DNA from: Thermoanaerobaculia bacterium
GTDB lineage: Bacteria > Acidobacteriota > Thermoanaerobaculia > Gp7-AA8
Length of the DNA stretch: 64,000 bases
Direction: 5' to 3'
Assembly: GCA_041748075.1 (NCBI GenBank)
Contig: JBGTDX010000118.1
Coordinates: 66,730-130,729 of the forward strand
Below are positions 3,045 to 22,192 of this stretch, piece by piece. Made by a program: the position numbers and the translations under genes. How positions within the stretch are numbered: the stretch's first letter is position 1; each line of letters starts with the position of its first letter. The notes below the pieces were generated by a model. It saw nothing but the letters and a program-made list of their open reading frames with translations, did not search any database and was not told the origin of the DNA.

Positions 3045-3225
3045 GTCAAAACTCCCGCCGTCATCCCGAGCAACCTAACGGCGCGGGGCGCCGGTGAAGG
3101 GGTGATGAACCGCGCACCGGAGGTGCGCTGAGAGGGTAGCCGGTGGCAAGCGAAGCGCAGCCACCGGACAGTGAGTCCCTCTTGTACACGCACCCCGGGT
3201 AGGGGTGCCAGATCCGACCTTGTTC

Positions 3226-3256: not shown

Positions 3257-3457
3257 CACCGGTACCGGAGGTTCATTAGAAGGTACCACCGCCCAGAACC
3301 CTGGAACGTCGCTCCGGCCGCACATGTGTTACTTTTTCTCCCATAAACGCCATCACGACTCGACGTCGTCGCTTGCAACATGAGTTCAAACATTGACAAC
3401 AATACACTTATCTTCCACAAACTCCATGGCATCCCGACTGCAATAGAGCAGCCCCAC

Positions 3458-3991: not shown

Positions 3992-4005
3992 CCGAGGAGA
4001 TCTGT

Positions 4006-4548
4006 ATGCGCTGCATAGTTGCCAGCTCACGCGGGAGTCACAGCGAACGGGGATTCAATCTCGTCGAAGTCATCATTGCCATGGCTCTGCTGGGAACCGT
4101 CCTTCTGGGAATCCTCTCGCTGTTCTTCTTCGGTCGCAACAACGTCTACAGCGGCAAACAGATGACGCATGCAGTCTCGGTCGCTACACATGTCCTCGAA
4201 GATCTTTCAGGGCTGACGTACACCCAGATCGAAGCGGCGATGGATTTCGAGATCGGAACCGACACACTTGCGAGTCATACGGTAAACGGCGTGACGTATG
4301 CCAGCGCACTGAGAAGAACCACAGACGCTCTCGGTGAAGACGCCGATCCTCCGAACTTCCTCGACAAGTGGAAGGCCGAGCTCGATACAAAAGTGTCCGA
4401 GGGTGCTGTGGACCTGATCTTCACGCCCGATCTCAGCGACCGGGTCCTGCGCATCGACGTGATCGTCACCTGGAAGGAACCGGGAAGGATCAGTGTCGGT
4501 GGGAACAAGCGTCAGATCATCATGGAAACGGCCAAGATCCGCCACTGA
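4006..4548 (+). CDS. Minor pseudopilin (PilV/GspI-like).
   Basis: MRCIVASSRGSHSERG|FNLVEVIIAMALLGTVLLG is a prepilin N-terminal motif. A GAGGAGA Shine-Dalgarno sits 6 nt upstream. Confidence 0.7.
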   Translation: MRCIVASSRGSHSERGFNLVEVIIAMALLGTVLLGILSLFFFGRNNVYSGKQMTHAVSVATHVLEDLSGLTYTQIEAAMDFEIGTDTLASHTVNGVTYASALRRTTDALGEDADPPNFLDKWKAELDTKVSEGAVDLIFTPDLSDRVLRIDVIVTWKEPGRISVGGNKRQIIMETAKIRH

Positions 4549-4564
4549 CCAGGGAGACATTCAG

Positions 4565-7500
4565 ATGCAGCGAACAGCACGTCGTTCCGAGCGGGGATTC
4601 AGCCTCGTCGAAGTCATCGTGGCCACCGCGATTTTCGTGGTCGTCCTCGTCGCAGCGCTGATGCTCTACGACCGGAGCACGAACACGTTCAGGCGAGGGA
4701 TCGAGGCTGCCGACACCCAGCAGAACACCCGAGTGTCGTTCGACAAGCTGCTCACCGATCTCCGCATGGCGGGATTCGATTACGATCGTGATGGGTTCCC
4801 GAGTGCCGCAGCAGGCACCGTCTGGACCGCCAGCCGCGTTTACGCGGTCGGGGACATCGTCGTACCCGTAGTCGTAAACGGCTTCAATTACCGCGCGACC
4901 ATAGGCGGAACCAGTGGCGGTTCGGAGCCGACCTGGCCGACCACCATCGGAGACCTTCGCGTGGATGGCGGGGTTACCTGGGAAACCATTGCCGGCACGA
5001 GCCAGGCGCAGCAGCCCGATGAACAGATCGAATACGTCGGTCCCTCGGCCATCACCATCCGCGCGAACTTCGACTACAACATCACTCCCAACCAGGGACG
5101 CGAACCGGCACTGGAATCCGCATCCTTTCCCGTCGTAACGACCGGAAACCACGAGATCGTCACCTACGCCCTCCGCTCAGCTGACGCCTCCAAGAACATA
5201 CAATCGGTTCAGTTCTTCGCCGACGTAAACGCTTCGGGTGCTCCGAGTCGTACCGCTTATCCCGGCGGAAGTTCCGAGCGGCAGATTACGATTCCAAACG
5301 TCGACCTCACGAACGCCAACCCACCGTATACACTCCACCGTTTCACACTCGCGGAGGACGGTTCGGTGGTCTCGAGCCCTGTAGCCGAAAATATCCGCAG
5401 CCTCAATTTCTTTTACTTTCAGGACACACAGGGGCTGACTCCTCTGGAAGACCTGTCGACCACCCCGGTGGCTTTCCCGCAGGGGAGCGCCACGCTCGGC
5501 GGAAGCGGGCAGTACAATCCTGCAAGCCCGGCGACGCTGATTCCGTGGCGGACGATGCGCTCGCGAGTCCGCTCGGTTCGGGTCGAGCTTGTGGGTATGT
5601 CGAGCCAGCCCGACCCGGCTTATACCGATACAGATCCCATCGTCGCGACGCGCAACTTCAGAAAATATCGCCTCGAAACTCTCATCGTCCCGCGCAACAT
5701 CGGAAAACGTGGCCTGCGCGAGTTCGACACGATGCCTCCAGGCGCGCCCGTACTCCAGTCGGCGTGCTTCGGACACTGCAGCATCGCGAAGCTCACCTGG
5801 CAGGCTCCGTCCACGGGAGGCGCGGTCGAACAGTACGCCATTCTTTACGACACCGACCTGGTCGGAGGTTTCGCGAGCAGTTTCATCGTCAGCGCGACCA
5901 CCTTTGCGTACGTAGTGCTGCCCGACCCCGCTGCCACGTACTACTTCGCCGTCCAGGCGCTCAACGGCTACGGCGCGTCGCCGGAGTCAAACGTACTCAG
6001 CGGCATACCGCTCAACCGGACCAAGCCAGACGCAATCGATGACATCACGGTGAACACCACAGCGAGCGGCATCCAGCTCAGTTGGCAGAAGCCTGTTACC
6101 AATGACGTCGGCGGGCTGACCTGCGTGCCGAGCGGCAGCCCTTCGGAAGAAATCCCAGCCCAGGAGAATATCCGTTACCGAATCTACCGCTCGATAGGAG
6201 ATGACATGTTCACGGCAGATTCGACCACCAGGATCTGGGACGAGAACTCCACCGGCGGCAACCTGGCCTACAACCCCGGAAGCGGAACGGTCACCTTCAC
6301 CGACAGCACGGCCGCCAACTGCGTGGACTACTACTATCGGATCGAAGCCCTCGATCGATGTGGCGACGACAGCAGCCTCAATGCCTCCGGATTCACCGGC
6401 GTGTCGGACATCTTCCCAGCTGCAGGATCTCCGGGAACATTTGCCCGCAACAACCCGAGCACTCCGCCGCAGCCCATGGCGCCTTCAACGCTCCAGGTAC
6501 TTTTGCCAGCGTCTAACTGTGATGCATTCAACTGCGAAATCTATCTCGAGTGGCCACGGGTGACCCTGGACATTTCCTCGAATCCTGTGGCGGTCGACGA
6601 GTACATCATCAGGCGTCGGAGACTGCTGGCGGGCGTTTATGTCGTGGAGCCGCCCGATGATGTTCCCTCGAGCGGCCACTCGGCGACGTCAGGCCCGACC
6701 ATAAGCGTCAGGCAGGATGTTCCCGCACCGGTTGCGGGAGTGTTCGACATGTACGAATACACCGTCTTCGCAACGAACTGCTCCACCTGGAGCGATCCCT
6801 CGCTCACGGTCAGGTTCCCCTGCGCCTGGTCCGGCGGATCGCCGGTGATCACCAACCAGCCGGTAGTCGGGGTATCCGGCGCCCTGGAAGGTAATGGGGA
6901 TGCCGGCTCGCCGTTCCTGGTGTTCGGCTCGCCCTCGTTCAGCATCAGCGGCATAACAAGCACGGTTAACGTGACAGCATTCGTCTATCTGGGGGGAACC
7001 CAGATTGAAGGGCCTCTCACGAGAACCGGCCCCGGCGCGCTGCCGATCTCCACCGATCCCATTGACGATGGGACGATCTACAGCCTGTCCCTGCAGTTCG
7101 TCGATTCCGGCGGTTGCTCGGTCAACCAGACGATCTATTTCGTCGGAAGCAGCAGCAACTGCTGCCTTGCAATTGAAAGCATCACGGGAGCTGTCGCATC
7201 CAGTGCCGAAGTCACAGTCACGTTCAGAAATCAGTGCTCTGCGAACGTGGCGATGAATGCGAGTGGGGCCGTTCGCATGCAGTGGACCGATGACCGATTC
7301 CCCAATCCATCTGTCCGGCTCGGCGGCATCACCTATCCCCGCGAAGGGGGCGGAACCATTGCCGGCACCGTCGCGACGAATACGGAGGGAAGCGTCGTTT
7401 CCCATAGCGCTCCGGGAGGAGCTGACGTGACCATCGAGGCGGGAACAACGTACGAGATCAAATTCTCGTTCACTAGAGACCTGAACGTCTCGACCTCTCC

Positions 7501-7588
7501 CATTCTGGATCTCTGCATCTCGTACGGTTCTTCTCCCATTACAGTGTGCAACATCATCAACGACGGCTTCGGGACTACGTGTCCGTAA
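4565..7588 (+). CDS. Giant minor pilin/pseudopilin (about 1007 aa; PilW/GspJ position) with fibronectin-III-like domains. Putative tip adhesin.
   Basis: ORF 4493..7588 trimmed to ATG 4565: MQRTARRSERG|FSLVEVIVATAIFVVVLVAALML. Internal W...Y...YY.A.N..G.S blocks (e.g. LTWQAPSTGGAVEQYAILYD...YYFAVQALNGYGAS and LSWQKPVTND...YYYRIEALDRCGD) look like FN3 domains. Confidence 0.7.
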   Translation: MQRTARRSERGFSLVEVIVATAIFVVVLVAALMLYDRSTNTFRRGIEAADTQQNTRVSFDKLLTDLRMAGFDYDRDGFPSAAAGTVWTASRVYAVGDIVVPVVVNGFNYRATIGGTSGGSEPTWPTTIGDLRVDGGVTWETIAGTSQAQQPDEQIEYVGPSAITIRANFDYNITPNQGREPALESASFPVVTTGNHEIVTYALRSADASKNIQSVQFFADVNASGAPSRTAYPGGSSERQITIPNVDLTNANPPYTLHRFTLAEDGSVVSSPVAENIRSLNFFYFQDTQGLTPLEDLSTTPVAFPQGSATLGGSGQYNPASPATLIPWRTMRSRVRSVRVELVGMSSQPDPAYTDTDPIVATRNFRKYRLETLIVPRNIGKRGLREFDTMPPGAPVLQSACFGHCSIAKLTWQAPSTGGAVEQYAILYDTDLVGGFASSFIVSATTFAYVVLPDPAATYYFAVQALNGYGASPESNVLSGIPLNRTKPDAIDDITVNTTASGIQLSWQKPVTNDVGGLTCVPSGSPSEEIPAQENIRYRIYRSIGDDMFTADSTTRIWDENSTGGNLAYNPGSGTVTFTDSTAANCVDYYYRIEALDRCGDDSSLNASGFTGVSDIFPAAGSPGTFARNNPSTPPQPMAPSTLQVLLPASNCDAFNCEIYLEWPRVTLDISSNPVAVDEYIIRRRRLLAGVYVVEPPDDVPSSGHSATSGPTISVRQDVPAPVAGVFDMYEYTVFATNCSTWSDPSLTVRFPCAWSGGSPVITNQPVVGVSGALEGNGDAGSPFLVFGSPSFSISGITSTVNVTAFVYLGGTQIEGPLTRTGPGALPISTDPIDDGTIYSLSLQFVDSGGCSVNQTIYFVGSSSNCCLAIESITGAVASSAEVTVTFRNQCSANVAMNASGAVRMQWTDDRFPNPSVRLGGITYPREGGGTIAGTVATNTEGSVVSHSAPGGADVTIEAGTTYEIKFSFTRDLNVSTSPILDLCISYGSSPITVCNIINDGFGTTCP

Positions 7589-7599
7589 GGAATGAAATC

Positions 7600-9801
7600 A
7601 TGATCGAAAGGCCAACACGCACTTCCGAAGAACGCGGCTCTGCGCTTCTGGTGAGCCTCATGGTGATGGTCGGTCTGTCTCTTCTGGGACTCGGCTTCGT
7701 CACCGCTTCCGAGACCGAGAGCGCCATCTCGGCGAACCAGCGAAACTATACCCAGGCCCTCTCGATCGCGGAAACCGGCGTGAAGGCCGCGGTCGAATGG
7801 TTTCAGAACCCGGAATCGATGGCTGACATCGGTCTGCTCCCTGTCAATCACGTCAACCTCAAGACCACCAGAATTCTGGGAGGAACTGGCATCGGATATT
7901 ACAAGGGAAGCGGGGGCGATCTTTTCGACCGTCCGTTCAAACCTGCTCCGGTCGACCGCCTCTACGGTGACGTCGACCATGCGGACGTGAAGATCGACCG
8001 CAATAGCGTGCAGGGACGCGCGTTTCTCGACGCGTTCAACACCGCCATTCTCGGGAACACTCAGAACGGCGAAGTCACTGAGATCCTCGTTTACGCGCCG
8101 CCGATCGTTGGGGGTACGCTCAATGGTGACGGCTTCTGGGAGGGAGGAACGCGCTACGGCCTGGCGACCATCCGCGCGACTTCGACCATTTTCCGCGACC
8201 GCGTCGCGCGGACGGGCATCATCGCGGAGCGCTCCGTGACGGTCGTCGTCACCGAATGGCCGTTCCCCGGACCTCAGGGCCCCGTGCAGTCGAATGCCAG
8301 TATCTCCACGGCGGGCAACTTCGGCGTCCACTGGGGAAAGATGACTTCCTCCGAGTCGATGAATATCTTCAACTCGTGGGCAGCCCTCCCCTGGTTCAAC
8401 GCCTACGACCGGATCACGATCGACCGCGGCTACCCGACCCAGAACAAGTGCGGTCCTTTCGATGATCAGCCGTGCGAAGCGCAGTATCTGCCGCTCGCGA
8501 GCGGCACGGATCTCCCCACCGACCACGACTGGCTCGCTGAGATGGTCGGACGCACGGTCGTCGATCCATGGTGGGAAGCGCGTTCGCGCATGAACATCAC
8601 CAACATGGGGGGCGACACCACGCCAATCCCGTACGCCAAAATCGACCACCTCGTCAACGACGTAGTGAGCACTCCCCGGGCCGGCTACTCCGGCTGGGGA
8701 CAGTTCCAGGACCGCAACGACTACCCCAACCACAAGGAAGTCATCTTCCCCCGCATCGACTACGACTTCTGGAAGGAGATCGCCATCCAGGGCAGCTCCA
8801 GCGGCCAGGAAGGTATCTATTATCTCCGCCCGACCGGCGGGATCAACTACACGGACGGATCCACGACCAAGAACTTCGGCGAATGGGTCAACGTGAACCG
8901 CGACGGCAACCCCGGCTTCTACTTCTTCGACACGATGAACGGTCTCAATCCGCAGGGTCCGGGAGCGCCCGGAACTCTTGCGCCCGCAATCCTTCTGAAC
9001 TCCGGCGTCGATGGACCAGGCTTCCGGATGGAAGGGTTCATTTATCTCAATGTCGCGAGCTATCAAAGTACGGGCCTTTCCCCACCGACACAGTGGGTTC
9101 CGTTTCCAGGAGAGCCGTACCGGGACGTCGGCTATCAGCGCATCAATCCAGGCACCGGTGAACCGATCGCCGGCCAGGCGAACTTCGACGCCAACAACGG
9201 GCAGTGGGACTACCAGGATGTCAACGACAATGGACGCTTCGACGTGTTCGTAAATAATCTCGTCGCGAAAACGAGACCTTCGGGAGGAGGTTCATTCTTT
9301 CCCTACCTTCCGGTGGCCCACTACGTGGGATGCAACCCGGGAGTGAACTGCTCGGAGCCGCATGAGCCATACCTGAACATCATTTATCCCACGACCGCCA
9401 AAACGGGTGGGATGGGAGGAAGCCCGACCCCCGTGGTCGTTGGCTGGCAGCCGCAGGGCGCTCAAACGCGGAGGGCGAAGGCCCGGCCGGGCGGGGTGAC
9501 ACCGGCCTGCCCGTCCGACAACACCTTCAACGCAAACTGCACATCCAATGGCTATGACCGTGACGGCGGCTACACGAACGACCTGCAACTGCTCCTCAAC
9601 GGCGTGCTCTATGTCGAGGGCGACTTCCTCGGTACGGCCGGTAACGGCGAGTACTTCGGTTCCGTCCTCGTCGAGGGCGACTTCAGCTCGACCGGCACCT
9701 CGGAGGTGTGGTTCGACGAGCGGCTGATCAAAGGCGACTGGCCGCCTCCGGAGTTCAACTTTCCGCGCGTCTACATCAGCGCAATGAAGACCGACGAATA
9801 A
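7600..9801 (+). CDS. PilX-N-domain pseudopilin (PilX/GspK-like), 733 aa.
   Basis: ORF 7546..9801 trimmed to ATG 7600. The N-terminus ERGSALLVSLMVMVGLSLLGLGFVTASETESAISANQRNYTQALSIAETG matches the PilX N-terminal domain pattern, followed by a large Gly/Asn/Asp-rich C-terminal region. Confidence 0.7.
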   Translation: MIERPTRTSEERGSALLVSLMVMVGLSLLGLGFVTASETESAISANQRNYTQALSIAETGVKAAVEWFQNPESMADIGLLPVNHVNLKTTRILGGTGIGYYKGSGGDLFDRPFKPAPVDRLYGDVDHADVKIDRNSVQGRAFLDAFNTAILGNTQNGEVTEILVYAPPIVGGTLNGDGFWEGGTRYGLATIRATSTIFRDRVARTGIIAERSVTVVVTEWPFPGPQGPVQSNASISTAGNFGVHWGKMTSSESMNIFNSWAALPWFNAYDRITIDRGYPTQNKCGPFDDQPCEAQYLPLASGTDLPTDHDWLAEMVGRTVVDPWWEARSRMNITNMGGDTTPIPYAKIDHLVNDVVSTPRAGYSGWGQFQDRNDYPNHKEVIFPRIDYDFWKEIAIQGSSSGQEGIYYLRPTGGINYTDGSTTKNFGEWVNVNRDGNPGFYFFDTMNGLNPQGPGAPGTLAPAILLNSGVDGPGFRMEGFIYLNVASYQSTGLSPPTQWVPFPGEPYRDVGYQRINPGTGEPIAGQANFDANNGQWDYQDVNDNGRFDVFVNNLVAKTRPSGGGSFFPYLPVAHYVGCNPGVNCSEPHEPYLNIIYPTTAKTGGMGGSPTPVVVGWQPQGAQTRRAKARPGGVTPACPSDNTFNANCTSNGYDRDGGYTNDLQLLLNGVLYVEGDFLGTAGNGEYFGSVLVEGDFSSTGTSEVWFDERLIKGDWPPPEFNFPRVYISAMKTDE

Positions 9802-9811
9802 ACTTACATGT

Positions 9812-9850
9812 GGCAGGGGACTCCGCTCCCCTGCCTGTTCCGTTCATTCC
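9812..9850 (+). terminator. Intrinsic terminator after the PilX-like gene.
   Basis: Stem ggcagggga / tcccctgcc with loop ctccgc, followed by the T-rich ttccgttcattcctttg. Confidence 0.45.
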
Positions 9851-9887
9851 TTTGTATGAACGAAGCTGGAGCGATGACGATCGTCTC

Positions 9888-9955
9888 GCTGACTCCAGGT
9901 GTGGTACCTCTTCAACTATTCGGTATAGGCAAACCTGGGAGCAATGGCGTCAATT
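9888..9955 (+). repeat. Structured about 70-nt repeat, family R2 copy a (ctccaggtg.ggtacctc..actattcggtat.ggca..cctgggag).
   Basis: Clearly related to the copies at 10111-10180 and 11941-12012 and to a fragment at 11464-11492. Confidence 0.7.
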
Positions 9956-9968
9956 TGACGCACGAGGT

Positions 9969-10052
9969 GTCATCCTGAGCGAAGCGAAGGATCCCCCCAA
10001 GCCTTGCGATACTGCCAGTTGTAAGGGGATCCTTCGCTTCGCTCAGGATGAC
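9969..10052. repeat. Palindromic repeat element, family R1 copy a (gtcatcctgagcgaagcgaaggatcc ... ggatccttcgcttcgctcaggatgac).
   Basis: About 26-bp perfect arms around a about 32-nt loop. It makes spurious VILSEAKDP-type ORFs on both strands (ORF track 9708..10229 and 9970..10341). Confidence 0.8.
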
Positions 10053-10110
10053 ACTTGCTCCCTTGGCACCGCGCGAGTCTACGATGCGTGGAGCGCGCAC
10101 GATCCTCTCG

Positions 10111-10180
10111 CCGACTCCAGGTCCCGCACCTCGTCACGATCCGGCATAGGCAGGGCCTGGGAAGGCCCTGCCACATGGGG
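10111..10180 (+). repeat. Family R2 copy b, containing the inner hairpin ggcagggcc-tgggaa-ggccctgcc.
   Basis: Alignment by eye with copies a and c. Confidence 0.7.
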
Positions 10181-10238
10181 GCTTCGGCCGCTGCCGATTT
10201 TCCTCGGATTTTCGAAGATTCCGAGGTAGCCTCGGTGC

Positions 10239-10793
10239 GTGACTGAGAAGACGAAAAGCGGCGCGCTGTACGAGGATGTGATCGCTGCGCCGGAGATGAA
10301 AATCGCCGAGCTCGTCGGCGGCGATCTTTACCTTTCTCCACGGCCGGCGATGCGGCATTCGAAGGCTGCGTCGATGCTCGGTGCGGACCTCAGCGATGCG
10401 TTCCATCGGGGCCGAACCGGTCCCGGAGGCTGGTGGATCCTCGACGAGCCCGAGCTTCATTTCGGCAGCGACGTCCTCGTTCCCGACATCGCGGGATGGA
10501 GGCGCGAGCGTCTGCCCGAGATTCCTGATGCCGGATGGATGGAGCTCGCACCCGACTGGTTGTGCGAGGTGCTGTCGCCTTCGACGGAACGCTTCGACCG
10601 TCGTCTCAAGCTTCCGCTTTATGCAGCGGCCGGCGTGGAACATCTCTGGCTGCTCGATCCCGGCATTCGGACTCTCGAGGTCTACGGCCGGATGGGGGCA
10701 TCGTGGGTGCTGCTCGAATCGCATCGCGGCGACGCGACGGTGCATGCTCCTCCGTTCGAAGCCGTCGGTATCGAGCTCGCGCCGGTCTGGTAG
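10239..10793 (+). CDS. Uma2-family endonuclease (DUF820; putative restriction-endonuclease-like).
   Basis: GTG start. YEDVIAAPEMKIAELVGGDLYLSPRP ... DVLVPDIAGW ... PDWLCEVLSPST ... GVEHLWLLDP matches Uma2 hallmark blocks. Confidence 0.8.
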   Translation: MTEKTKSGALYEDVIAAPEMKIAELVGGDLYLSPRPAMRHSKAASMLGADLSDAFHRGRTGPGGWWILDEPELHFGSDVLVPDIAGWRRERLPEIPDAGWMELAPDWLCEVLSPSTERFDRRLKLPLYAAAGVEHLWLLDPGIRTLEVYGRMGASWVLLESHRGDATVHAPPFEAVGIELAPVW

Positions 10794-10841
10794 GCCATAC
10801 CATATTGCATAGGTCTCAAACAGCCCGCTCAGGGGATTCTC

Positions 10842-11198
10842 TCAGCGCGGATTGGTGAGCGTTCCCAGTCGTGTGAGCACCTCGGCGATGACGGTCTCGG
10901 GAAGGGTGCAGATGAGCCGGGCTTTCCGCGCACGCCAGTCGAGACTCTTCAGCTGATCGCTGAGAATCGCTCCCTCGATCGGAAGCGCCGCCGCGGGTAA
11001 CAACACTTCAAAGGGGTAGCCTTTGATCGCCGAGGTGATCGGACAGAACAGCGCCAGTCCGACCCTTCCGTTGTAGGCGACCGGAGAGATGACAACTGCA
11101 GGTCGCCGGCCTGCCTGCTCGTGCCCAGCCTGCGGATCGAACAGGAGCCACACGACATCGCCACGTCCGGGAACGTAGCTACCAGACTTCTTTGCCAA
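10842..11198 (-). CDS. Type II toxin, MazF/PemK family endoribonuclease.
   Basis: SYVPGRGDVVWLLFDPQAGHEQAGRRPAVVISPVAYNGRVGLALFCPITSAIKGYPFEVLL. TTG start at 11198 overlaps the end of the antitoxin gene. ORF track frame 10842..11360. Confidence 0.7.
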   Translation of the reverse strand: MAKKSGSYVPGRGDVVWLLFDPQAGHEQAGRRPAVVISPVAYNGRVGLALFCPITSAIKGYPFEVLLPAAALPIEGAILSDQLKSLDWRARKARLICTLPETVIAEVLTRLGTLTNPR

Positions 11199-11418
11199 CC
11201 GGTTTTCCTGTTGCGATCTCTGTGTGAAGGTTTTCGTCGGAGATTCTTGCGAGCAACTCTTCGAGCGTGACCGGCTCCGGCAAGGGAACCACGACGAGCT
11301 CGCCGTCCCGAACACGCACTTCGACCGATGAGTCTTCGACAAGCTGGACTTCCTCGGCAAATGGTTTCGGAATACGGAGGGCCAGGCTGTTTCCCCACTT
11401 CTGGATTCGAGTTCTCAT
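11179..11418 (-). CDS. Type II antitoxin, MazE / AbrB-SpoVT family.
   Basis: MRTRIQKWGNSLALRIPKPFAEEV... is a swapped-hairpin AbrB-type DNA-binding fold signature (KWGNSLALRIP). Confidence 0.65.
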   Translation of the reverse strand: MRTRIQKWGNSLALRIPKPFAEEVQLVEDSSVEVRVRDGELVVVPLPEPVTLEELLARISDENLHTEIATGKPVGKEVW

Positions 11419-11430
11419 GGTAATCGGTAT

Positions 11431-11649
11431 CTACAAAGAGTATACCATCAATCGTAGTCTTCGCGATGGCTCCAGGTAAGGTACGAGGGTGAGCCGTCCG
11501 CGCTCGACCAGCTTTGCGACTTCCCAGCACGAGATCGCACTTACCGCGAAGCCGTCTTCTGGTAATTCGAGGCTCGCTGCCAACTGTGCGGAAATCTGCC
11601 GATCACCATGACACCACCAGACCCAGATGTGGGTGTCGAGCAGGATCAC
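11431..11649 (-). pseudogene. PIN-domain (VapC-like) toxin, 3'-truncated to 72 aa; likely disrupted.
   Basis: MILLDTHIWVWW...AVSAISCWEVAKLVERGRLTL is the N-terminal half of a PIN domain. The frame diverges exactly where a partial R2 repeat copy (11464-11492, ggctccaggtaaggtacg) lies and stops at 72 aa, against about 130 aa expected. Confidence 0.5.
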
Positions 11650-11855
11650 TTTTCAGTGTCCCACTCCGACTCGCTCACCGCGGGGAGGAATGGATCGATC
11701 AGGCGCACGGGCAGACCCCGAAGGGGCATCGTTGGCCGGGGAGCCTCGACAAGCTTCACCGTGACGTCGACCTGCTGGCCCTGCTTCACCGGCAGACCAT
11801 CGATCACGATCCGGCCATCCTTCAGAACGAGAACCCGCAGTTTCTTTGTCTTCAT
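11646..11855 (-). CDS. Putative antitoxin (VapB-like small DNA-binding protein) paired with the PIN gene.
   Basis: 69 aa: MKTKKLRVLVLKDGRIVIDGLPVKQGQQVDVTV. A 4-bp ATGA overlap with the downstream PIN ORF is typical of type II toxin-antitoxin coupling. Confidence 0.45.
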   Translation of the reverse strand: MKTKKLRVLVLKDGRIVIDGLPVKQGQQVDVTVKLVEAPRPTMPLRGLPVRLIDPFLPAVSESEWDTEK

Positions 11856-11940
11856 CGCGTGCTCCAGTTCAAGAGAGTACCTCGGAGGCTCGGTCGAGAC
11901 AACAGCAGTGATCTGGTTCCGTGCGGTTTCGGTTCTCCAA

Positions 11941-12012
11941 ATGGCTCCAGGTGAGGTACCTCTTTACTATTCGGTATTGGCAGGACCTCGGAGGGCCCTG
12001 CCAGATGTTGGC
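11941..12012 (+). repeat. Family R2 copy c.
   Basis: ggctccaggtgaggtacctctttactattcggtattggcaggacctcggagggccctgccagatg. Confidence 0.7.
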
Positions 12013-12162
12013 CATCCGGAAATCCGCTCGGCGGGCGCTCCGTTGTAGAATAGGCAGTGCCGTTACGCCTCCCCGCTTCGCTCTGCATGTATCAGCGAAT
12101 CCATCATTTAGAAACGTTTCCTGCATTCGCGCGTCGAAAAGGCGTGACAGATTGGAAAACTG

Positions 12163-13371
12163 ATGCCTAGCTTCGTGTTCAGGGTTGGCACGCCCGACGG
12201 CCAGATCATCGAGCGCCAGGTCGACGCGATCGACCTCCCCAGCGCGAAGGAGGAGATCCAGCGGGCCGGCCTCCATGTCTTTCACGTCAAGCAGCAGGGC
12301 CTGTCATTCTCGCTGAACCCGTTCCGCTCACGAAAGATCGTCTCGACCGAGGGCTTCCTGCTCTTCAATCAGGAGCTGCTGGCTCTGGTCAGGGCAGGCC
12401 TGCCGGTGATCCAGTCATTCGACATCATGCTCGAGCGGCAGAGGAATCCTCGGTTCAGGCAGGTCCTCACGGAGATCCGCGACAAGGTCAAGTCGGGCGT
12501 TGCGATCTCGGACGCTTTCGCCGCATACGGCCGGGCATTCCCTCCGATCTATTCGACCTCGATCCGCGCGGGCGAGCGTGCAGGCGACCTCGAGGGGGTT
12601 CTCCGCCGCTTTCTCCGCTACCAGAAGATCATCGTCAACCTCCGAAAGAAAGTCACCTCGGCGCTGATCTACCCGGCGGTCCTGGTGACTCTTTCCGTCG
12701 TGATGGTCTTCATCATGCTCACGTACGTCATCCCGAAGTTCGCGGAGTTCTACGAAGGCTTCGGGGCCGATCTCCCGTGGGCGACCCAGCTGACTATCAC
12801 CATTTCGACGATCCTCAGGGAAAACATCCTCATCGTTTTCGGATCCCTGGCCGCTGTCATATTCCTGGTGCGGCGGTGGAGCCTCAGCGTCACCGGGGGG
12901 ATCACGTACGACCGGCTCAAGCTGAAGATTCCGCTCGTAGGCGGCATTCTTCACCGCTTCGCGCTTCTCCAGTTCACCCAGTCGCTGGGCACGCTTCTGG
13001 CGGGGGGAACGCCCATGGTTCCGTCGATCGAGATCGCCGCCCTGTCGATCACGAACCGTCACGTTTCGGCCCGCGTCGCCGCCATCGCAAAGAACGTCAT
13101 GGAGGGTGAAACGCTGTGGAGGTCGCTCGAGCAGACCGGGGTCATCAGCGACATGGCGGTCGAAATGATCAAGGTCGGCGAGTCGAGCGGCGCCCTCAAT
13201 GAAATGCTGGCCAACGTGAGCGAGTTCTACGATGAGGAAATCGAATCGCGGTTGAACCGGATGATCACGATGATCGAGCCGATCATTCTTGTCGGGCTCG
13301 GCATCGTCATTGCCGGGCTCCTCTATGCCTTCTACCTGCCGCTCTTCCAGTTGACGAACGTACAGAATTGA
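12163..13371 (+). CDS. pilC: Type IV pilus / T2SS inner-membrane platform protein (PilC/GspF).
   Basis: 402 aa with T2SSF-family repeats and three TM segments. Confidence 0.9.
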   Translation: MPSFVFRVGTPDGQIIERQVDAIDLPSAKEEIQRAGLHVFHVKQQGLSFSLNPFRSRKIVSTEGFLLFNQELLALVRAGLPVIQSFDIMLERQRNPRFRQVLTEIRDKVKSGVAISDAFAAYGRAFPPIYSTSIRAGERAGDLEGVLRRFLRYQKIIVNLRKKVTSALIYPAVLVTLSVVMVFIMLTYVIPKFAEFYEGFGADLPWATQLTITISTILRENILIVFGSLAAVIFLVRRWSLSVTGGITYDRLKLKIPLVGGILHRFALLQFTQSLGTLLAGGTPMVPSIEIAALSITNRHVSARVAAIAKNVMEGETLWRSLEQTGVISDMAVEMIKVGESSGALNEMLANVSEFYDEEIESRLNRMITMIEPIILVGLGIVIAGLLYAFYLPLFQLTNVQN

Positions 13372-13378
13372 TCAATCC

Positions 13379-14992
<1,614 letters not shown>

Positions 14993-14994
14993 CT

Positions 14995-15894
14995 ATGGCC
15001 AGATCATTTCCACCAGACGTCATCATCTGCGATCAGGATTCGCTCATGTTCGCCCGTTTCGACGGCGGCAAGTCGATGCCCCGGATCGTGACGGCGAAGA
15101 CGTACGCGCTCGATGACGATGTGTTTGCACCGGGGATCGTGACGCCCGCTCTCGCGCGGCCGGAACAGCTCACCGCGGTTCTCGGGCGCATGAAAAAGGA
15201 GCAGGGACGGCTCGATCGCGTTTCGCTGCTGCTGCCCGATTCCTGGTTCCGCATCAACCTGATTGACATTCCGACGCTGCCGGAGAAAAAGGCGGAGGCG
15301 GATGAAGTCGTGCGCTGGTCTCTGAAGAAATCCACGCCGATCCGGCCTGAAGAGTTCCGCCTGGCCTATCAGACCGTGGACAAGACGAGCTCCGGATCAC
15401 GGGTGCTCGTGGTCGCCGCTCTCGAGAAGACGCTCGCCGGAATCGAAAAGGCATTCGCCGAGACACAGCTCACTCCGGTGCTCATCGAGCCGGTCGGGAT
15501 GAACATCTGGAACAGCATCGCAGTACGAGAGCAGCCGGCCAACGATGACAGAATCTTCTTCTATGTCCGGAATCGGGAATTCACCACCGCGGTCTTCAGG
15601 AATGGCACGCCGCTGTTCTTCCGTTCGCGAGTGATGAGCGACGACCGGACGCTCCTTCAGGAGATCCGGCTTTCAGCGTCGTATTTCAAATCGAATCTCG
15701 AGATCACGCACGTGGAAAAATGCTACGTGGCGGGCCAGCAGTTCAACGATCAGGTATCGTCCACGATCTCCGAGGAGCTCGGCGCGACGACCTCCAGAGT
15801 CACGCTCGACAGCTACGTCGAATCATCTCCCTCGGTTGATACGCGCGCGATCGAGGCCGAGCTCACAGCCTGCGCAGGAGTGTTCACCGCTTGA
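14995..15894 (+). CDS. PilM/GspL-like cytoplasmic assembly protein (actin-like fold).
   Basis: ORF 14764..15894 trimmed to ATG 14995, 3 nt after the pilB stop. Position and size (299 aa) are consistent with PilM. Similarity is modest. Confidence 0.6.
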   Translation: MARSFPPDVIICDQDSLMFARFDGGKSMPRIVTAKTYALDDDVFAPGIVTPALARPEQLTAVLGRMKKEQGRLDRVSLLLPDSWFRINLIDIPTLPEKKAEADEVVRWSLKKSTPIRPEEFRLAYQTVDKTSSGSRVLVVAALEKTLAGIEKAFAETQLTPVLIEPVGMNIWNSIAVREQPANDDRIFFYVRNREFTTAVFRNGTPLFFRSRVMSDDRTLLQEIRLSASYFKSNLEITHVEKCYVAGQQFNDQVSSTISEELGATTSRVTLDSYVESSPSVDTRAIEAELTACAGVFTA

Positions 15895-16469
15895 AGACGC
15901 TTCACCTGAATCTCGCTTCGCGCCCGTATCGCGATTACACGCCTGTCTATGCCGTGGCGATCGTGCTCGCTCTCGTGACGGGCTTTCTCATGATCAACAA
16001 CATCCAGACCGCGTACCGTTACTTCGTCAACACCGAGGAAACGCGCGGAGAGATCGCCCGGGTCGAGGCCGAGACTGCTGCCGAAACCCGCGCGGCGGAA
16101 ACGCTGGAGCGATCCGCAGAGGGGATCAATGTACGGGCGCTCGCGATGGAGACGGCGTACATCAACGCGCAGATCGCCGAGCGCGCGTTCTCCTGGAGCA
16201 ATCTTCTCGACAACATGGAAAGGGTACTTCCCCGCAACGTCCGGCTGATGACGCTCAATCCCGACATTCAACCCGACGGAGATGTGAGACTCACCATCAC
16301 CGCCAGAGCCAAGGGGAGCGACGGCATGGTCACCATGCTGCGGAATATGCTCGGCGATCCTCACTTCGCCGATCCGTTCCCGGGAACCGACTCTCAGAAT
16401 GATGACGGCTCCTACAGCTTCAGTCTTTCGACGACCTATCGTCCGGATCCGCGGGGGCTGACGCGATGA
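15891..16469 (+). CDS. PilN-like (bitopic, N-terminal LNLASRP motif then a TM helix).
   Basis: MKTLHLNLASRPYRDYTPVYAVAIVLALVTGFLMINN. TTG start overlaps the upstream stop. Confidence 0.7.
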   Translation: MKTLHLNLASRPYRDYTPVYAVAIVLALVTGFLMINNIQTAYRYFVNTEETRGEIARVEAETAAETRAAETLERSAEGINVRALAMETAYINAQIAERAFSWSNLLDNMERVLPRNVRLMTLNPDIQPDGDVRLTITARAKGSDGMVTMLRNMLGDPHFADPFPGTDSQNDDGSYSFSLSTTYRPDPRGLTR

Positions 16470-17056
16470 TCTGGCGCGAGAAAAGGAGCCTGCTGATTGT
16501 TCTGGGCGTGCTGCTTGCGATCAATGTGGCATTCTTCCTGACATACAGGGTTCGATACCAGCAGAGGATCCAGGCGCTCGACGTGACGCTCGATCAGGCG
16601 AACGCGGCCCTGGAAGCCGCCCGCAGCCGGAAGGCGGCCGCAGAGCAGACTCTCACGGGTTACAAGTCGACGACCGCCGACATTCAGAGGATCTACAACG
16701 AAGTCTGGTCCACGCCGCAACGGCGGCTCACGTCCATGATCCTGGAGATTCGCGACCTGGAAAATCGCAGCAGAATGGTGCCGCGCTCCACGAGCTTCAC
16801 GCAGCAGGTCGAGAAGAAAGAATTCGGAACGCGGGCCATGACGATGAACTTCATGGTCCGGGGCACCTATGCACAGGTGCGCCAGTTCATCAACCTGCTC
16901 GAGTTGTCCCAGAACTTTGTGGTGATCGATCAGATCATGCTGGCAGACCCGACCGATGAAACCCAGCTCCTGAATCTGAACATTCAGATCAAGACACTCT
17001 TCCACGAGCCACTCGATCCGTCAGAGCAGTCGGCGCGGCGCGGAGGAACCTCCTGA
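16466..17056 (+). CDS. PilO-like protein (TM helix plus coiled coil).
   Basis: MIWREKRSLLIVLGVLLAINVAFFL followed by a coiled-coil region. 4-bp overlap with PilN. Confidence 0.65.
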   Translation: MIWREKRSLLIVLGVLLAINVAFFLTYRVRYQQRIQALDVTLDQANAALEAARSRKAAAEQTLTGYKSTTADIQRIYNEVWSTPQRRLTSMILEIRDLENRSRMVPRSTSFTQQVEKKEFGTRAMTMNFMVRGTYAQVRQFINLLELSQNFVVIDQIMLADPTDETQLLNLNIQIKTLFHEPLDPSEQSARRGGTS

Positions 17057-17736
17057 TGGACTGGTCGAACTGGAAGACCTGGCTCCTGCTCAGCGGCGTT
17101 GTGCTCGCCCTGTTCGCGATCTATGTCTTCGCGTCTCCCGACGCTCCCCTGCAGTTGCAGAATGAGCCCGAGGCCGTGCGTCCCGTTGCCGCGTCGCGGC
17201 AGGTCGCGGGCGGGGCAACGCGCTCGATTGCGCCTCCGGGCGTGGAACCGGTGCGCATCGATCTGCTCGAGCCGGCCAGCGGAAGCTTCAGCAGCGACCG
17301 CAACCTGTTCCGTTATGTAGAACCGCCTCCGCCTCCTCCCGCTCCAACACCCAGACCTCCCGCTCCCCCGCCGGATCGCGACAAGGACGGCATTCCAGAC
17401 TTCCAGGACAATTGTCCCGATGTATACAACCCGGACCAGGCGGACATCGATCGCAATGGCGTAGGTGATGCATGTCAGGAGGGGCCTATCGTTCCTCCAC
17501 CGCCGCCGCCGCCGCAACCGCCGGCGTTCAACTACACTTACATGGGAAGCTTCGGGACGCCCGCGCGGCCCATCGCGGCATTCTCGCGCGACGGACAGAT
17601 CGTCAACGTGAGGGTGGGCGAGACCTTCGGCGGACAATTCATCCTCCGGAACATAGGGATCGAGTCGGTGGACATCGGGTTCGTCGGATTTCCGCCGGAT
17701 GCGCGAAAGAGAGTCGCCGTCGGAACGCCTCCGTGA
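17056..17736 (+). CDS. PilP/GspC-like protein carrying a thrombospondin type-3 (Ca-binding) repeat and polyproline tracts.
   Basis: N-terminal TM helix. PPPPPPAPTPRPPAPPP, then DKDGIPDFQDNCPDVYNPDQADIDRNGVGDAC (a TSP3 / OmpA-N-like DxDxDGxxDxxD motif), then PPPPPPPQPP and a C-terminal beta-rich domain. Confidence 0.55.
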   Translation: MDWSNWKTWLLLSGVVLALFAIYVFASPDAPLQLQNEPEAVRPVAASRQVAGGATRSIAPPGVEPVRIDLLEPASGSFSSDRNLFRYVEPPPPPPAPTPRPPAPPPDRDKDGIPDFQDNCPDVYNPDQADIDRNGVGDACQEGPIVPPPPPPPQPPAFNYTYMGSFGTPARPIAAFSRDGQIVNVRVGETFGGQFILRNIGIESVDIGFVGFPPDARKRVAVGTPP

Positions 17737-17804
17737 CGTTTCGTCACGCTTGAGCGTCTGAGCTGTTATAGCCGAGCCACATGATCGATCGAGAGAAAAC
17801 ATTC

Positions 17805-20252
17805 ATGAACCGAAACAGACTGAAAGTCGCAACGACGCTACTTCTGCTGCTGCCTCTGCTTTCGTGTACGAGCTTCCGCTCGTATCAGAGCGCGAAAGAC
17901 TTCGAAGAGCAGGGCAAGTGGGACGAGGCGATCGTCGAATACCAGAAGGCACTCGAGGTCGATCCCAACAACGTCCGCTACAAAATGGCGCTCGACAGGA
18001 GCAAGCTGGAAGCTTCGCGCGCACACTTCGAGAAGGGCAAATCGCTCCGCGCGGCTGCAATCGAAGCGCGAAACCGGGGAGAGGCTGCGCGAGCGCTGCA
18101 GCTCAACGAGCTCGCGCTGGTCGAGTTCGAGCTCGTCGTCAGACTGGATTCCACAAACCAGTTTGCCGCGGTCGAGTATGCGAAAGTCGTCTCCGCGATT
18201 CAGGAAGCAACGGCCGCAGCAAACGGTCCGACCTTCGAAGAGCGCAAGCGCGCGGTCGTCACCAAGGCGCAGCCGCCACAACTCAACCCAACCTCGCTCG
18301 AGCCGATCTCACTGTCGTTCCCCCGCCCCACTCCAATCAAGGACATCTACCGTTCCCTCGGCAATGCGTTCGGCATCAACATCATCTTCGATCAGGGGGT
18401 CAAGGATGAAGAGCGCATCTCGATCGAGCTGCGGGACGTCACCGCGCAGCAGGCGCTCGAGCGCGTCATGCAGGCCGGCAATCAGTTCTACAAGGTCCTC
18501 GACGAGAAGACGCTCATCGTCATCCCCGACACACCACAGACCCGGCGTGACTACGAAGATCTCGTCATCCGTACGTTCTACCTTTCCAACGGAGATGCCG
18601 AGCAGGTGACCAACGTCGTCAGGACGATGATCGAAGCACGGAACGTATTTCCGCTCAAAGCGCTCAACGCGATCACGATCCGCGACACCGCGGACAAAGT
18701 GCGGATCGCAGAGAAGATCATCGAAGCAAACGACAAGGCGCGTGCAGAAGTCGTCGTGCAGGTCGAGCTTCTGCAGGTCGACGCCCGCAAGCTGCGCGAC
18801 ATCGGCCTCAAACTCGGCGCCTACAGCACGAGTGGCGCGTTGACCGACGCGGCCGGCGGCACGATCGGAAGCCTCCCGTACGGGGAGCTGGGCAACATCG
18901 CGCTGAACGATTTCAACTTCACGATTCCCACGCTCAGCTATACGCTCCTGAAGAACAACACCGACGCGCGGCTTCTCGCACGGCCGCAGCTGCGGATCTC
19001 CGAGGGTGAGGACGCAACGCTGCACATCGGCCAGAAACAGCCCATTCCCGTCTCGACGCTCTTCACGAACGTCGGCGTCGGCGGCGGATTCAACCAGGGT
19101 CCCATCACCTCGTTCCAGTACCAGGACGTAGGAATCAAGATCGCGATCACGCCGCGCGTCCATCACAACCGCGAAGTCTCGTTGAAGCTCACCGTCGAGG
19201 TGTCGAACATCGCGGGATTCGTTCCAGGCGGCGGAGAAAACTCTCCCGATCAGCCGATCATCGGAACCCGCACCATCCAGTCGACCATCCGACTCAAGGA
19301 CGGTGAGACGAACCTTCTCGCAGGCCTGATCCGGGAAGACGACTCGATCACCAAAGACGACATCCCCTTCCTGTCTGACCTTCCGGTCATCGGACGGCTG
19401 TTCAGCAGGGAACAGAACAACGTAGCGACCACGGACGTGGTCCTCACCATGACCCCGCACATCATCCGCATCCCCGACATCACGGACGAGGATCTCGCGC
19501 CGATGTGGGTCGGAACGACGAACAATCTGACCTTCCGCGGGGTTTCGCCGCGGCTCGAGTCAAACGTTCAGGCGGATCCGTTCAACAACGTGCCCCGCAC
19601 GACCACCGCGACACAGGAGAACCCGCCGCCGTCGCAGGAGTTCTTCGCCCCGGGCCAGGTGCCGGCGACGCAGCCTCCGCCCTCATCACCCGTTCCACCC
19701 GCATCCGGACCGAGCGACGTCTTCCGCCAGCAGCCGCAGCCACCGCCTCCCGGAGGCGGAGCCAATGAGCCGCAGAATCCAGGTGTTCAACCGCCGCCGC
19801 CGGGAGCGTCGTCGATGAACCAAGAAGACTACCGGCTCAAATTCGCCCCGCGAATCGCTCCGCAGCCGTCGAGAATCGCGCTCGGTCCCGGCGAAGAAAA
19901 GGTCTGGTCGATCGTTGCGATGGATGTAGCGGAGCTTGCGATCCCGCAGATGGTGCTGCACTACGACCCGCTCGCGATGGACATCGCTGGCTTTTCGCTG
20001 GGCACGGCACTCGAGATCAACCCTGAAGTTCCGCCGGTCGTATCGATCGACCGGGCGAATGGAACGATTCGCATCAGCTCGTCCGACGGCAGCATGCTCC
20101 AGTTCCGCTCCGGCGGTGAGGTCGTCGCCTTCCGGGTGCGGGGCGGCGTAACAGGCGACACGATGCTCGTGATCGAACCGCTCGCGTTCTCGCAACGCAA
20201 CGGCGAGCGCGTCGACGTTGCCGTCGCCGGCGGCTCGGCCCGGGTGGAGTAA
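17805..20252 (+). CDS. Secretin (PilQ/GspD family) lipoprotein with an N-terminal TPR-like segment and a about 260-aa C-terminal extension.
   Basis: Lipobox LLLLLPLLSC. Secretin core LLARPQLRISEGEDATLHIGQKQPIP...IIGTRTIQSTIRLKDGETNLLAGLI...DIPFLSDLPVIGRLFS...VVLTMTPHIIR. The Pro-rich linker and extra beta domain that follow are detailed in the secretin finding. Confidence 0.85.
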   Translation: MNRNRLKVATTLLLLLPLLSCTSFRSYQSAKDFEEQGKWDEAIVEYQKALEVDPNNVRYKMALDRSKLEASRAHFEKGKSLRAAAIEARNRGEAARALQLNELALVEFELVVRLDSTNQFAAVEYAKVVSAIQEATAAANGPTFEERKRAVVTKAQPPQLNPTSLEPISLSFPRPTPIKDIYRSLGNAFGINIIFDQGVKDEERISIELRDVTAQQALERVMQAGNQFYKVLDEKTLIVIPDTPQTRRDYEDLVIRTFYLSNGDAEQVTNVVRTMIEARNVFPLKALNAITIRDTADKVRIAEKIIEANDKARAEVVVQVELLQVDARKLRDIGLKLGAYSTSGALTDAAGGTIGSLPYGELGNIALNDFNFTIPTLSYTLLKNNTDARLLARPQLRISEGEDATLHIGQKQPIPVSTLFTNVGVGGGFNQGPITSFQYQDVGIKIAITPRVHHNREVSLKLTVEVSNIAGFVPGGGENSPDQPIIGTRTIQSTIRLKDGETNLLAGLIREDDSITKDDIPFLSDLPVIGRLFSREQNNVATTDVVLTMTPHIIRIPDITDEDLAPMWVGTTNNLTFRGVSPRLESNVQADPFNNVPRTTTATQENPPPSQEFFAPGQVPATQPPPSSPVPPASGPSDVFRQQPQPPPPGGGANEPQNPGVQPPPPGASSMNQEDYRLKFAPRIAPQPSRIALGPGEEKVWSIVAMDVAELAIPQMVLHYDPLAMDIAGFSLGTALEINPEVPPVVSIDRANGTIRISSSDGSMLQFRSGGEVVAFRVRGGVTGDTMLVIEPLAFSQRNGERVDVAVAGGSARVE

Positions 20253-20263
20253 CCAGCCAGCTC

Positions 20264-22108: not shown

Positions 22109-22192
22109 GTCATCCTGAGCGCAGCGAAGGATCCCCTGAGGACTTGCGGTAGCGCCTCGAGGCGGGGGATCCTTCGCTTCGCTCAGGTTGAC
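22109..22192. repeat. Family R1 palindromic element copy b (gtcatcctgagcgcagcgaaggatcccc ... ggggatccttcgcttcgctcaggttgac). Probable terminator after the pilin cluster.
   Basis: Seen directly, with about 27-bp arms. Confidence 0.8.

Follow-up and report, generated by a model that had tools for sequence, protein, structure and literature searches.

In REPIN–RAYT systems, described in Pseudomonas and Enterobacteria (Bertels & Rainey 2011, PMC3116915; PMC3337134; Ton-Hoang/Messing 2012, PMC3479197), a non-autonomous repeat made of two inverted hairpin-bearing arms and a short spacer, which fold into one long hairpin, is dispersed in hundreds of copies, mostly at gene ends and without target-site duplication, and a single-copy HUH/Y1 transposase gene (RAYT, REP-associated tyrosine transposase) lies between repeats; subfamilies occur within one genome. 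We describe an element that resembles these systems in each of these respects, with subfamilies distinguished here by the loops TCGGAG and TGGGAA. Its relics lie in a 64,000-nt stretch of a Thermoanaerobaculia bacterium genome (GenBank GCA_041748075.1, contig JBGTDX010000118.1, positions 66,730 to 130,729), hereafter the window, among Uma2 and toxin–antitoxin (TA) genes between a pilX-like gene and pilC. We conclude, with a probability of about 75%, that this locus is an intergenic hotspot holding a fast-turning TA/Uma2 islet, which carries the relics of a REPIN-like element that colonised it. Unlike the known REPINs, the element (its repeat is here called R2) has long arms of ~65 nt, is hosted by Thermoanaerobaculia (Acidobacteriota), and is known here from sequence.

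Non-GTAG, long-armed TIRYT/TIRtron elements with Y1 genes have been reported in Acidobacteria (Di Nocera 2013, PMC3733652), and class 3 TnpA-Y1 proteins in Acidobacteria and Planctomycetes, with ~600 hairpin copies in Solibacter usitatus (Quentin 2018, PMC6006769). Here too the Y1 gene is acidobacterial and lies between long inverted repeats or atypical hairpins, which have no GTAG and are likewise scattered through the host genome. Class 3, however, has the motifs NHVH, W[TA] and YV[VI][AENY]EQ and the foot CnGA, whereas our protein combines NHVH with WQ and YIRQHK, and the foot of the repeat reads CAYGT, so that it falls outside that class; the closest published signature is that of subclass 2.7 ([ND]HVH, WQ, YI[LR][NQ]NP, GT[AG]G REPs), of which the NP is missing here. 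A literature search found no description of such repeats in Thermoanaerobaculia.

The genes of the locus have parallels of their own. As in other chromosomal type II TA clusters (mazEF, vapBC) in variable intergenic hotspots, the modules are small, overlapping two-gene units of mixed families, content varies between close relatives, and toxins are inactivated while antitoxins survive; the modules themselves are ordinary, and the only particulars are the pilX–pilC position and the REPIN debris at junctions. Pseudomonas aeruginosa reportedly has allelic pilin and minor-pilin 'islands', an account attributed to Giltner et al. in 2011. The cassette-like allelic replacement of a minor-pilin/pilX block beside conserved assembly genes that we describe below is of that kind, but in another phylum, with other gene content, and with its right breakpoint in a cluster of R2 and a second repeat, R1, beside the TA islet.

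R2 is the right arm of a palindromic doublet

The original prediction, made from the window alone, had described R2 as a ~70-nt direct repeat, always in the same orientation, with an inner 9-bp GC hairpin in each copy. There are indeed three copies on the plus strand (a, 9867-9961; b, 10089-10186; c, 11920-12018), the 22-nt R2 core has zero occurrences in shuffled sequence, and the positions given for the copies, the genes and the R1 palindrome are correct. An inverted arm at 9807-9872 had been missed, which means that the orientation is not uniform, and the true unit is a palindromic doublet of ~149 nt, of which R2 is the right arm.

The doublet is defined by copies in JTS-RE88, a Thermoanaerobaculia bacterium of a sister species represented by a fragmented metagenome-assembled genome (MAG; GCA_041750915.1). 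We scanned one genome per species with a pattern of the hairpin and foot (GGCAGGNCC-N6-GGNCCTGCCANAT), which gave at least 107 matching stretches; among the matches listed, 63 of 80 were from JTS-RE88, the others being single, chance-like matches in unrelated taxa with unrelated loops. The JTS-RE88 hairpins are mostly inverted, forming at least 58 (-,+) pairs that are mostly 112-118 nt apart, and 47 aligned doublets yield a palindromic consensus of the form CCATGTGGCAGGGCC-loop-GGCCCTGCC..GATGTACGACACCTGGAGC - spacer - GCTCCAGGTGTCGTAC..GGCAGGGCC-loop-GGCCCTGCCACATGG. As single-stranded DNA this consensus is predicted to form one near-perfect hairpin (-87.7 kcal/mol, z = -21), and with its inverted hairpin arms and short spacer it has the architecture of a REPIN doublet.

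With a profile of the doublet, nhmmer locates R2 at no fewer than 149 loci across the 89 stretches retrieved; 78 of these are nearly full-length copies. Dispersal is thus at high copy number in JTS-RE88, while the window's 64 kb shows R2 at this locus only; the orthologous JTS-RE88 stretches carry extra gene-end doublets (L030, L034) where the window has none. The foot, CCATGT / ACATGG, is present in 47 of the 47 aligned doublets, and conservation ends there: whatever boundary offset is taken, no k-mer of 2-9 nt outside the palindromic terminus is duplicated as a target site. The loop TCGGAG is found in 110 arms and TGGGAA in 56, and the rare stem variants are compensatory.

The repeat features of the window are as follows.

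9807-9872, minus strand: left arm of REPIN-like doublet 1, inverted; starts 6 nt past the pilX stop
9892-9961, plus strand: right arm of doublet 1 (R2 copy a); terminal hairpin decayed; spacer to the left arm at 9873-9891
10077-10179, plus strand: partial REPIN-like doublet 2; inner left-arm remnant 10077-10094, spacer 10095-10114, intact right arm (copy b)
11448-11485, plus strand: REPIN fragment; spacer and first 16 nt of a right arm; nhmmer match 11457-11484, E 0.011
11944-12005, plus strand: solo REPIN right arm (R2 copy c); hairpin with one A-C mismatch, foot CAGATG

Doublet 1 is complete (9807-9961), consisting of the inverted arm and copy a, and the model built from JTS-RE88 doublets only matches it at 9807-9940 (E 1e-13, 48 bits). 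The terminal hairpin of its left arm reads GGCAGGGGA-CTCCGC-TCCCCTGCC, with the foot CATGT, and the stem differs from the consensus by compensatory changes; as a whole, the doublet no longer forms one long hairpin, its fold reaching -28.4 kcal/mol as against -87.7 for the consensus. It has an ortholog at 2133-2277 of L001, the syntenic JTS-RE88 locus. Doublet 2 is matched by the same model at 10078-10177 over model positions 49-148 (E 8e-18) and is 97% identical in the close relative L123 and 89% in L001; its right arm, copy b, has a perfect hairpin and the foot CACATGG. Copy c is matched at 11939-12007 over model positions 80-148 (E 1e-14). The 9-bp GC hairpin is therefore retained in two of the three copies, perfectly in b and with its single mismatch in c, and decayed in a. 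The fragment that had been proposed to lie inside the truncated PIN gene is confirmed: 11448-11485 forms the 3' end of that open reading frame (ORF), its spacer matches the spacer of a JTS-RE88 copy (L099), and L123 carries the same fragment. The R2 copies of the window are old, decayed relics.

Within JTS-RE88, we also observed a BIME-like cluster at 4607-4890 of L034: a solo hairpin with both feet (CCATGTGGCAGGGCCTTCCCAGGCCCTGCCACATGG) and, after it, three left arms and a single right arm of the REPIN in tandem.

A RAYT-like transposase gene between doublets

The repeats have a cognate RAYT-like gene in JTS-RE88, in a single copy and with doublets on both sides. At L011, an ORF at 2348-2944 stands between complete doublets at 2130-2277 (73 nt upstream) and 2947-3093 (3 nt downstream); the 732 kb of JTS-RE88 loci hold no second copy. 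A probe with E. coli YafM served only as a pointer to this ORF (E 0.61); the ORF was later tested with Pfam, where it matches Y1_Tnp at 30.2 bits (cutoff 23), and with NCBIfam, where its best model is REP_Tyr_transpos (REP-associated tyrosine transposase; E 2e-12, 47.1 bits). H122 and H124 of the HUH motif and the C-terminal Y189 are invariant in an alignment of 24 proteins (the L011 protein and 23 homologs). A profile of this family matches ISDra2 TnpA (2xm3, E 0.0035) and E. coli TnpA-REP (4er8, E 0.013) and aligns Y189 to the region of the ISDra2 catalytic Tyr; the profile was needed, as a single-sequence phmmer search of the PDB returned noise only. From the HUH motif, the tyrosine and the Y1_Tnp match, the L011 product is classed as an HUH Y1 transposase. 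It has an N-terminal extension of ~100 aa with the motif LPHWRQ, another difference from the known RAYTs.

Two other MAGs have RAYT homologs that are 49-50% identical to the L011 protein and are flanked by hairpin repeats of their own. In L124 (1-1300) there are at least six 57-nt arms with the foot CCACGTGG, analogous to that of R2, and the hairpin GGCCGAAGA..TCTTCGGCC; in L125 (1078-1839), GCAACGGCC-TCC-GGCCGTTGC hairpins flank the gene on both sides. No transposase gene was found in the 64-kb window, and the REPIN–RAYT system may be extinct in the window's genome, or the MAG may be incomplete.

The islet and its state in relatives

The islet is preceded by the gene of a PilX_N protein (7546-9801) and followed by the PilC gene (12163-13371), both assigned with Pfam. 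Its features, apart from the repeats, are these.

10199-10237, plus strand: conserved Uma2 leader with hairpin CCTCGGA..TCCGAGG, upstream of all Uma2 copies (window, L001, L123, both in L005)
10239-10793, plus strand: Uma2-family putative endonuclease gene, 184 aa, intact (Pfam PF05685, E 1e-22)
10842-11198, minus strand: mazF toxin gene, intact (Pfam PemK_toxin, E 2e-26)
11179-11418, minus strand: mazE antitoxin gene, intact (Pfam MazE_antitoxin, E 1.5e-12)
11431-11649, minus strand: truncated PIN (vapC-like) toxin gene, 72 aa, of which only ~55-57 residues are authentic
11646-11855, minus strand: gene of a 69-aa partner of the PIN toxin, a putative antitoxin, intact
12014-12162, plus strand: conserved pilC upstream region with AGAAACGTTT motif; L123 is 97.8% identical from 12014, L005 alignable from 12040

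We gathered syntenic loci through PilC homologs. Relatives with 70-73% PilC identity (L118, L120 and L122) have an empty site, a gap of 208-345 nt between the pilX-like gene and pilC that holds a terminator-like hairpin and the conserved AGAAACGTTT motif, and neither islet nor R2. The islet was therefore truly inserted, in the space separating two gene blocks rather than within a gene, and the proposal that an accessory module was gained here stands.

Four gene contents occur among relatives with 90-100% PilC identity. L003-L007 (90%) have R1 after pilX, two Uma2 genes, a plus-strand antitoxin/PIN pair, and a full-length PIN gene (~136 aa) with the 69-aa partner. L001 (JTS-RE88, 92%) has Uma2, a DUF5615/DUF433 pair, mazF/mazE remnants and a lone 69-aa gene, together with five or six R2 pieces in both orientations; only the first ~12 codons of its mazF are left, and a remnant of the mazE 3' half lies at 4057-4195. 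L123 (GCA_035512555.1), from the window's own species and 97-98% identical to the window, has Uma2, mazEF with mazF intact, and the same truncated PIN gene, and lacks window positions 11697-12013, that is, most of the antitoxin gene and R2c. The window has Uma2, mazEF, the truncated PIN gene and an intact 69-aa gene.

With the JTS-RE88 doublet model, R2 is absent from L003-L008. Because Uma2 and the PIN pair are present without R2 at 90% PilC identity, the islet predates the R2 invasion. A 26-nt relic upstream of the second Uma2 gene of L005 is significant against shuffles; as proof that R2 predates that lineage it was rejected, being too short.

The original suggestion of an island stabilising the pilus locus finds no support: the PIN gene is truncated in the window and deleted in L001, and the antitoxin gene is mostly deleted in L123. 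Nor is there evidence of a role in defence or addiction for that locus. The TA modules are visibly decaying, and PADLOC models match none of the islet proteins apart from Uma2, whose window protein matches a candidate defence family over its full length (PDC-S03, E 1e-15).

Breakpoints and an allelic operon

Several rearrangement junctions lie at R2. Homology between the window PIN gene and the full-length PIN gene of L005 starts at 11486, beside the 38-nt REPIN fragment (junction 11485/11486). In L001, where PIN and the 5' half of mazE have been lost, an R2 hairpin of 30 nt (4196-4225) spans the deletion; there is also an R2 arm between Uma2 and the replacement pair, DUF5615/DUF433. The deletion of 11697-12013 in L123 stops at most 10 nt from the outer end of R2c, with 3-nt microhomology.

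Identity between the window and L123 is 97.6% at 2397-3048, falls to 65-70% over 3304-9931 and returns to 97-98.4% over 10071-20681. The right switch (9931-10071) is inside the cluster of doublet, R1 and partial doublet, and the left switch is in repeat-rich DNA with R1-like sequence. We read the ~7-kb minor-pilin/pilX operon, from this identity profile, as an allelic cassette replacement with both breakpoints in repeat-rich intergenic DNA. The repeats at these breakpoints would fit as substrates for homologous or microhomology-mediated rearrangement, or as tolerated residents of permissive DNA.

Proposed history and its weak points

We propose that the gap between the pilX operon and pilC-pilB-pilMNOPQ is a permissive insertion hotspot, in which an ancestor of this Thermoanaerobaculia clade would have gained a small islet of Uma2 and type II TA pairs; gain, replacement and decay of TA cassettes would then have turned its content over. 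The R2 doublet would be a ~149-nt non-autonomous REPIN-type element, its arms bearing a terminal 9-bp GC hairpin and the CCATGT/ACATGG foot, that proliferated in the sister species, most likely mobilised on single-stranded DNA by the single-copy HUH/Y1 (RAYT-like) transposase. Copies would have landed in the intergenic spacers of the islet, and the dispersed hairpin-forming copies may later have served as deletion and replacement breakpoints, or may mark them. Repeated remodelling by recombination between repeats, as first proposed, is thus borne out as far as remodelling goes, by the four contents and the several breakpoints at R2; the causal role of the repeats, like the mobilisation of R2 by the transposase, is something we infer. 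The family appears to have expanded and to be active in JTS-RE88, and to survive as a relict in the window's species, with MAG incompleteness as a caveat.

A number of points weigh against this reading. No transposition was itself observed, and the attempt to obtain a clean pair of filled and empty sites (window 23600 and 26883 against JTS-RE88) gave none, the intergenic DNA there not being alignable. The foot is CCATGT/ACATGG and not the classical GTAG tag of REPINs. At 47.1 bits the L011 protein falls below the REP_Tyr_transpos equivalog cutoff of 80, as a distant member, and its motifs NHVH, WQ and YIRQHK together with the foot CAYGT fit no published subclass exactly in the motif table of PMC6006769. 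For the window's lineage, the protein database, in which proteins of that lineage are present, holds no transposase ortholog, the best match being 52% identical; 1456 homologs of the transposase family were retrieved. The window doublet scores 48 bits as against a median of 124 and a 5th percentile of 77 for near-full JTS-RE88 copies, on a model built on pattern-selected JTS-RE88 copies and so biased towards them, and the figure of at least 149 loci is a lower bound on the JTS-RE88 copy number. The vicinity of repeats and breakpoints is a correlation, intergenic DNA being tolerant of both. Finally, synteny in L001 is lost on the left at the very position where an R2 arm has its outer foot, through either a genuine rearrangement or an assembly join made at the repeat in this MAG; to the left of the islet, L001 1-2133 carries an unrelated gene of 679 aa on the opposite strand and not the pilX operon.

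Alternative explanations

R2 might be a functional cis-element (a terminator, mRNA-stabilising hairpin or small RNA) selected at gene ends, where it would regulate pilX, Uma2 and pilC. Copies do lie shortly past stop codons (6 nt for pilX in the window, 7 nt in L030, 3 nt for the RAYT-like gene), the stem is kept by compensatory changes, and terminator, mRNA-stabilising or small-RNA type roles have been reported for REPs elsewhere (PMC3733652). Yet R2 has no Rfam match at the gathering score in the whole window, nor even at E <= 1 in 9700-12300, contrary to the idea that it might be a known RNA; the hairpin is not followed by a T-tract, and scans for sigma-70 promoters and intrinsic terminators give nothing at R2. 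Both orientations are equally frequent because the doublet is palindromic, the window copies are decaying, and such a function would leave the copy number and the flanked transposase unexplained. We therefore consider selection for this function unlikely, while a transcript-end hairpin is possible as a side role of R2 and compatible with the reading of the copies as REPIN-like relics in a TA/Uma2 hotspot.

A more ambitious account has the repeats and the HUH transposase act as a portable break-and-join system that drives both the swaps of TA modules and the 7-kb minor-pilin/pilX replacement. It is prompted by the replacement breakpoints in R1-type and R2-type clusters and by the arm-cargo-arm unit in L001, and we regard it as doubtful.

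The original prediction saw direct R2 copies as recombination or attachment boundaries that bracket the island, which would be gained or lost by recombination between them. R2b and R2c are direct and near both ends of the gene cluster, and some rearrangement junctions touch R2. Against this, L003-L007 have the islet without R2, and the empty sites of L118, L120 and L122 likewise have no R2; R2 copies are dispersed in high number (at least 149 in JTS-RE88), the locus includes an inverted arm and a complete doublet, and the solo R2 that a deletion between R2b and R2c would leave is seen in no relative. Relatives with the islet and no flanking repeats, and repeats that are ubiquitous, were the very outcomes that the prediction had named as counting against it, and both are essentially what we found, which makes boundary repeats quite improbable.

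Equally hard to sustain is the view that R2 doublets are miniature inverted-repeat transposable elements (MITEs) of a DDE-type insertion sequence (IS), moved by cut-and-paste through terminal inverted repeats, with the Y1 gene coincidental. Long terminal inverted repeats, a uniform length of ~149 nt and high copy number would all suit it, but the palindrome spans the whole element and not the termini alone, there is no target-site duplication beyond its terminus, and no full-length IS with R2-type ends is seen in 732 kb. The Y1 gene, moreover, is flanked by doublets at 73 nt and 3 nt, and its homologs elsewhere are likewise bordered by hairpin families of their own.

Very unlikely, in our view, is a model of R2 arms as ends of composite elements by which the Y1 transposase delivers TA cassettes into the hotspot. 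In L001 the DUF5615/DUF433 pair does lie between a left arm (3338-3434, minus strand) and a right hairpin (4196-4225, plus strand), with the arm polarity of a doublet whose spacer has been replaced by cargo, and the RAYT-like gene is itself between doublets. The L001 interval, however, holds the mazE/mazF remnants and so looks like a scar of deletion and replacement, and mazEF in the window has no left arm. JTS-RE88 shows just one other long (-,+) pair among at least 107 loci, and the genes inside it are housekeeping genes, one of them a 552-aa ORF that we take to be glucose-6-phosphate isomerase; cargo-carrying doublets were accordingly rejected as a general mechanism.

TA cassettes with structured, imperfect palindromes of ~70 nt between genes recall chromosomal integron arrays. 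We give almost no credence to an array without integrase in which R2 would be attC, and rejected it on orientation, spacing and genome-wide distribution (no integrase search was made): the genes are in both orientations, R2 is absent between Uma2 and mazF with only the 38-nt fragment between mazE and PIN, the family is dispersed as inverted doublets and not in arrays, and the enzyme paired with it belongs to the HUH transposases rather than the tyrosine recombinases.

Genes of the islet

Uma2 is found in every relative that carries the islet. Its leader, GATTTTCCTCGGA..TTCCGAGGTAGCCTCGG, comprises the hairpin and a second CCTCGG immediately before the start codon, and lies at 2737-2775 in L001 and at ~925-985 and ~1645-1699 in L005, before both tandem Uma2 genes; it may be a translational or regulatory element.

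The adjacent mazE and mazF genes overlap at 11179-11198, and TTG is probably the start codon of mazF. MazF scores 126 bits with the NCBIfam MazF equivalog (cutoff 120). With a MazF/PemK toxin and a MazE/AbrB-type antitoxin encoded by overlapping genes, the pair is classed, by its family matches and gene arrangement, as a predicted mazEF type II TA system.

The neighbouring pair is not a complete vapBC-like module. The PIN ORF covers positions 1-55 of 120 in the Pfam PIN model, at 23.2 bits, slightly under the cutoff of 23.6, and its homology to the ~136-aa full-length relative stops near residue 57; the DPADQ and TLD regions of the full-length protein are missing, so that the 72-aa ORF of the window lacks a complete PIN domain with the conserved acidic residues. 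The 69-aa partner has no family match in Pfam or NCBIfam. Its gene adjoins PIN in L003-L009, stands alone in L001 and is mostly deleted in L123.

Upstream of pilC, the AGAAACGTTT motif lies at 12100-12125 of the window, ~40-60 nt before the gene. It is also present at 8958-8970 in L118 and 8925-8935 in L120, so that conservation extends to relatives whose PilC is only 70% identical, and the motif may be a promoter or operator element of pilC. In the same region of L005 (3860-3990), at the position where the window has R2c, we noticed four CATTCAA repeats, runs of CTCCTGT/GTCCTGT and a GC hairpin.

R1 and other repeats

A second, independent dispersed repeat family, R1, is represented between doublets 1 and 2.

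9967-10054, no strand assigned: R1 palindrome; arms 9967-9996 and 10025-10054, 30 nt each and 100% complementary; 28-nt spacer

Further R1 copies lie at 22109-22192 and 58562-58586 of the window, and 67 R1 arms were counted in 31 JTS-RE88 loci. After pilX, R1 is present in L005 and absent in L123. The segment 9966-10055 aligns to the full Rfam model RF03674 (MIR5387, typed there as a microRNA precursor) with 44.9 bits and E 3e-7, below the gathering score of 69; this likeness may reflect the seed of the model more than R1.

A third repeat, CCTAAC(C)GGCGC.GGGCGCCGGTGAAGGGGTGATGAACC, occurs at window 3050-3110 and 58490-58530 beside R1-like GTCATCC(C/T)GAGC motifs, and several degenerate R1-like heads lie within 58530-58720. 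In the empty pilX–pilC gap of L118 (8700-8830) there are two copies of a different hairpin repeat, CGAGAGGTCGGCC.GAGGCCGACGCCCCC, which means that the same gap draws other palindromic repeats in other lineages.

Significance

These results remove a false lead, since the structured repeat that seemed to bracket an island is the arm of a selfish palindromic element and neither an attachment site nor an RNA gene. None of the findings overturns current understanding. They document a REPIN-like family and a RAYT-like transposase in Thermoanaerobaculia, which extends the known range of such elements, and they supply a defined pair of substrate and enzyme for biochemistry. The locus itself presents a single intergenic hotspot in five states, a compact natural series in which TA turnover, loss of a toxin with its antitoxin kept, and the allelic swap of a minor-pilin operon can be followed. 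Were the doubtful break-and-join account to prove true, REPIN-like elements would be a mechanism of surface-structure diversification in Acidobacteriota.

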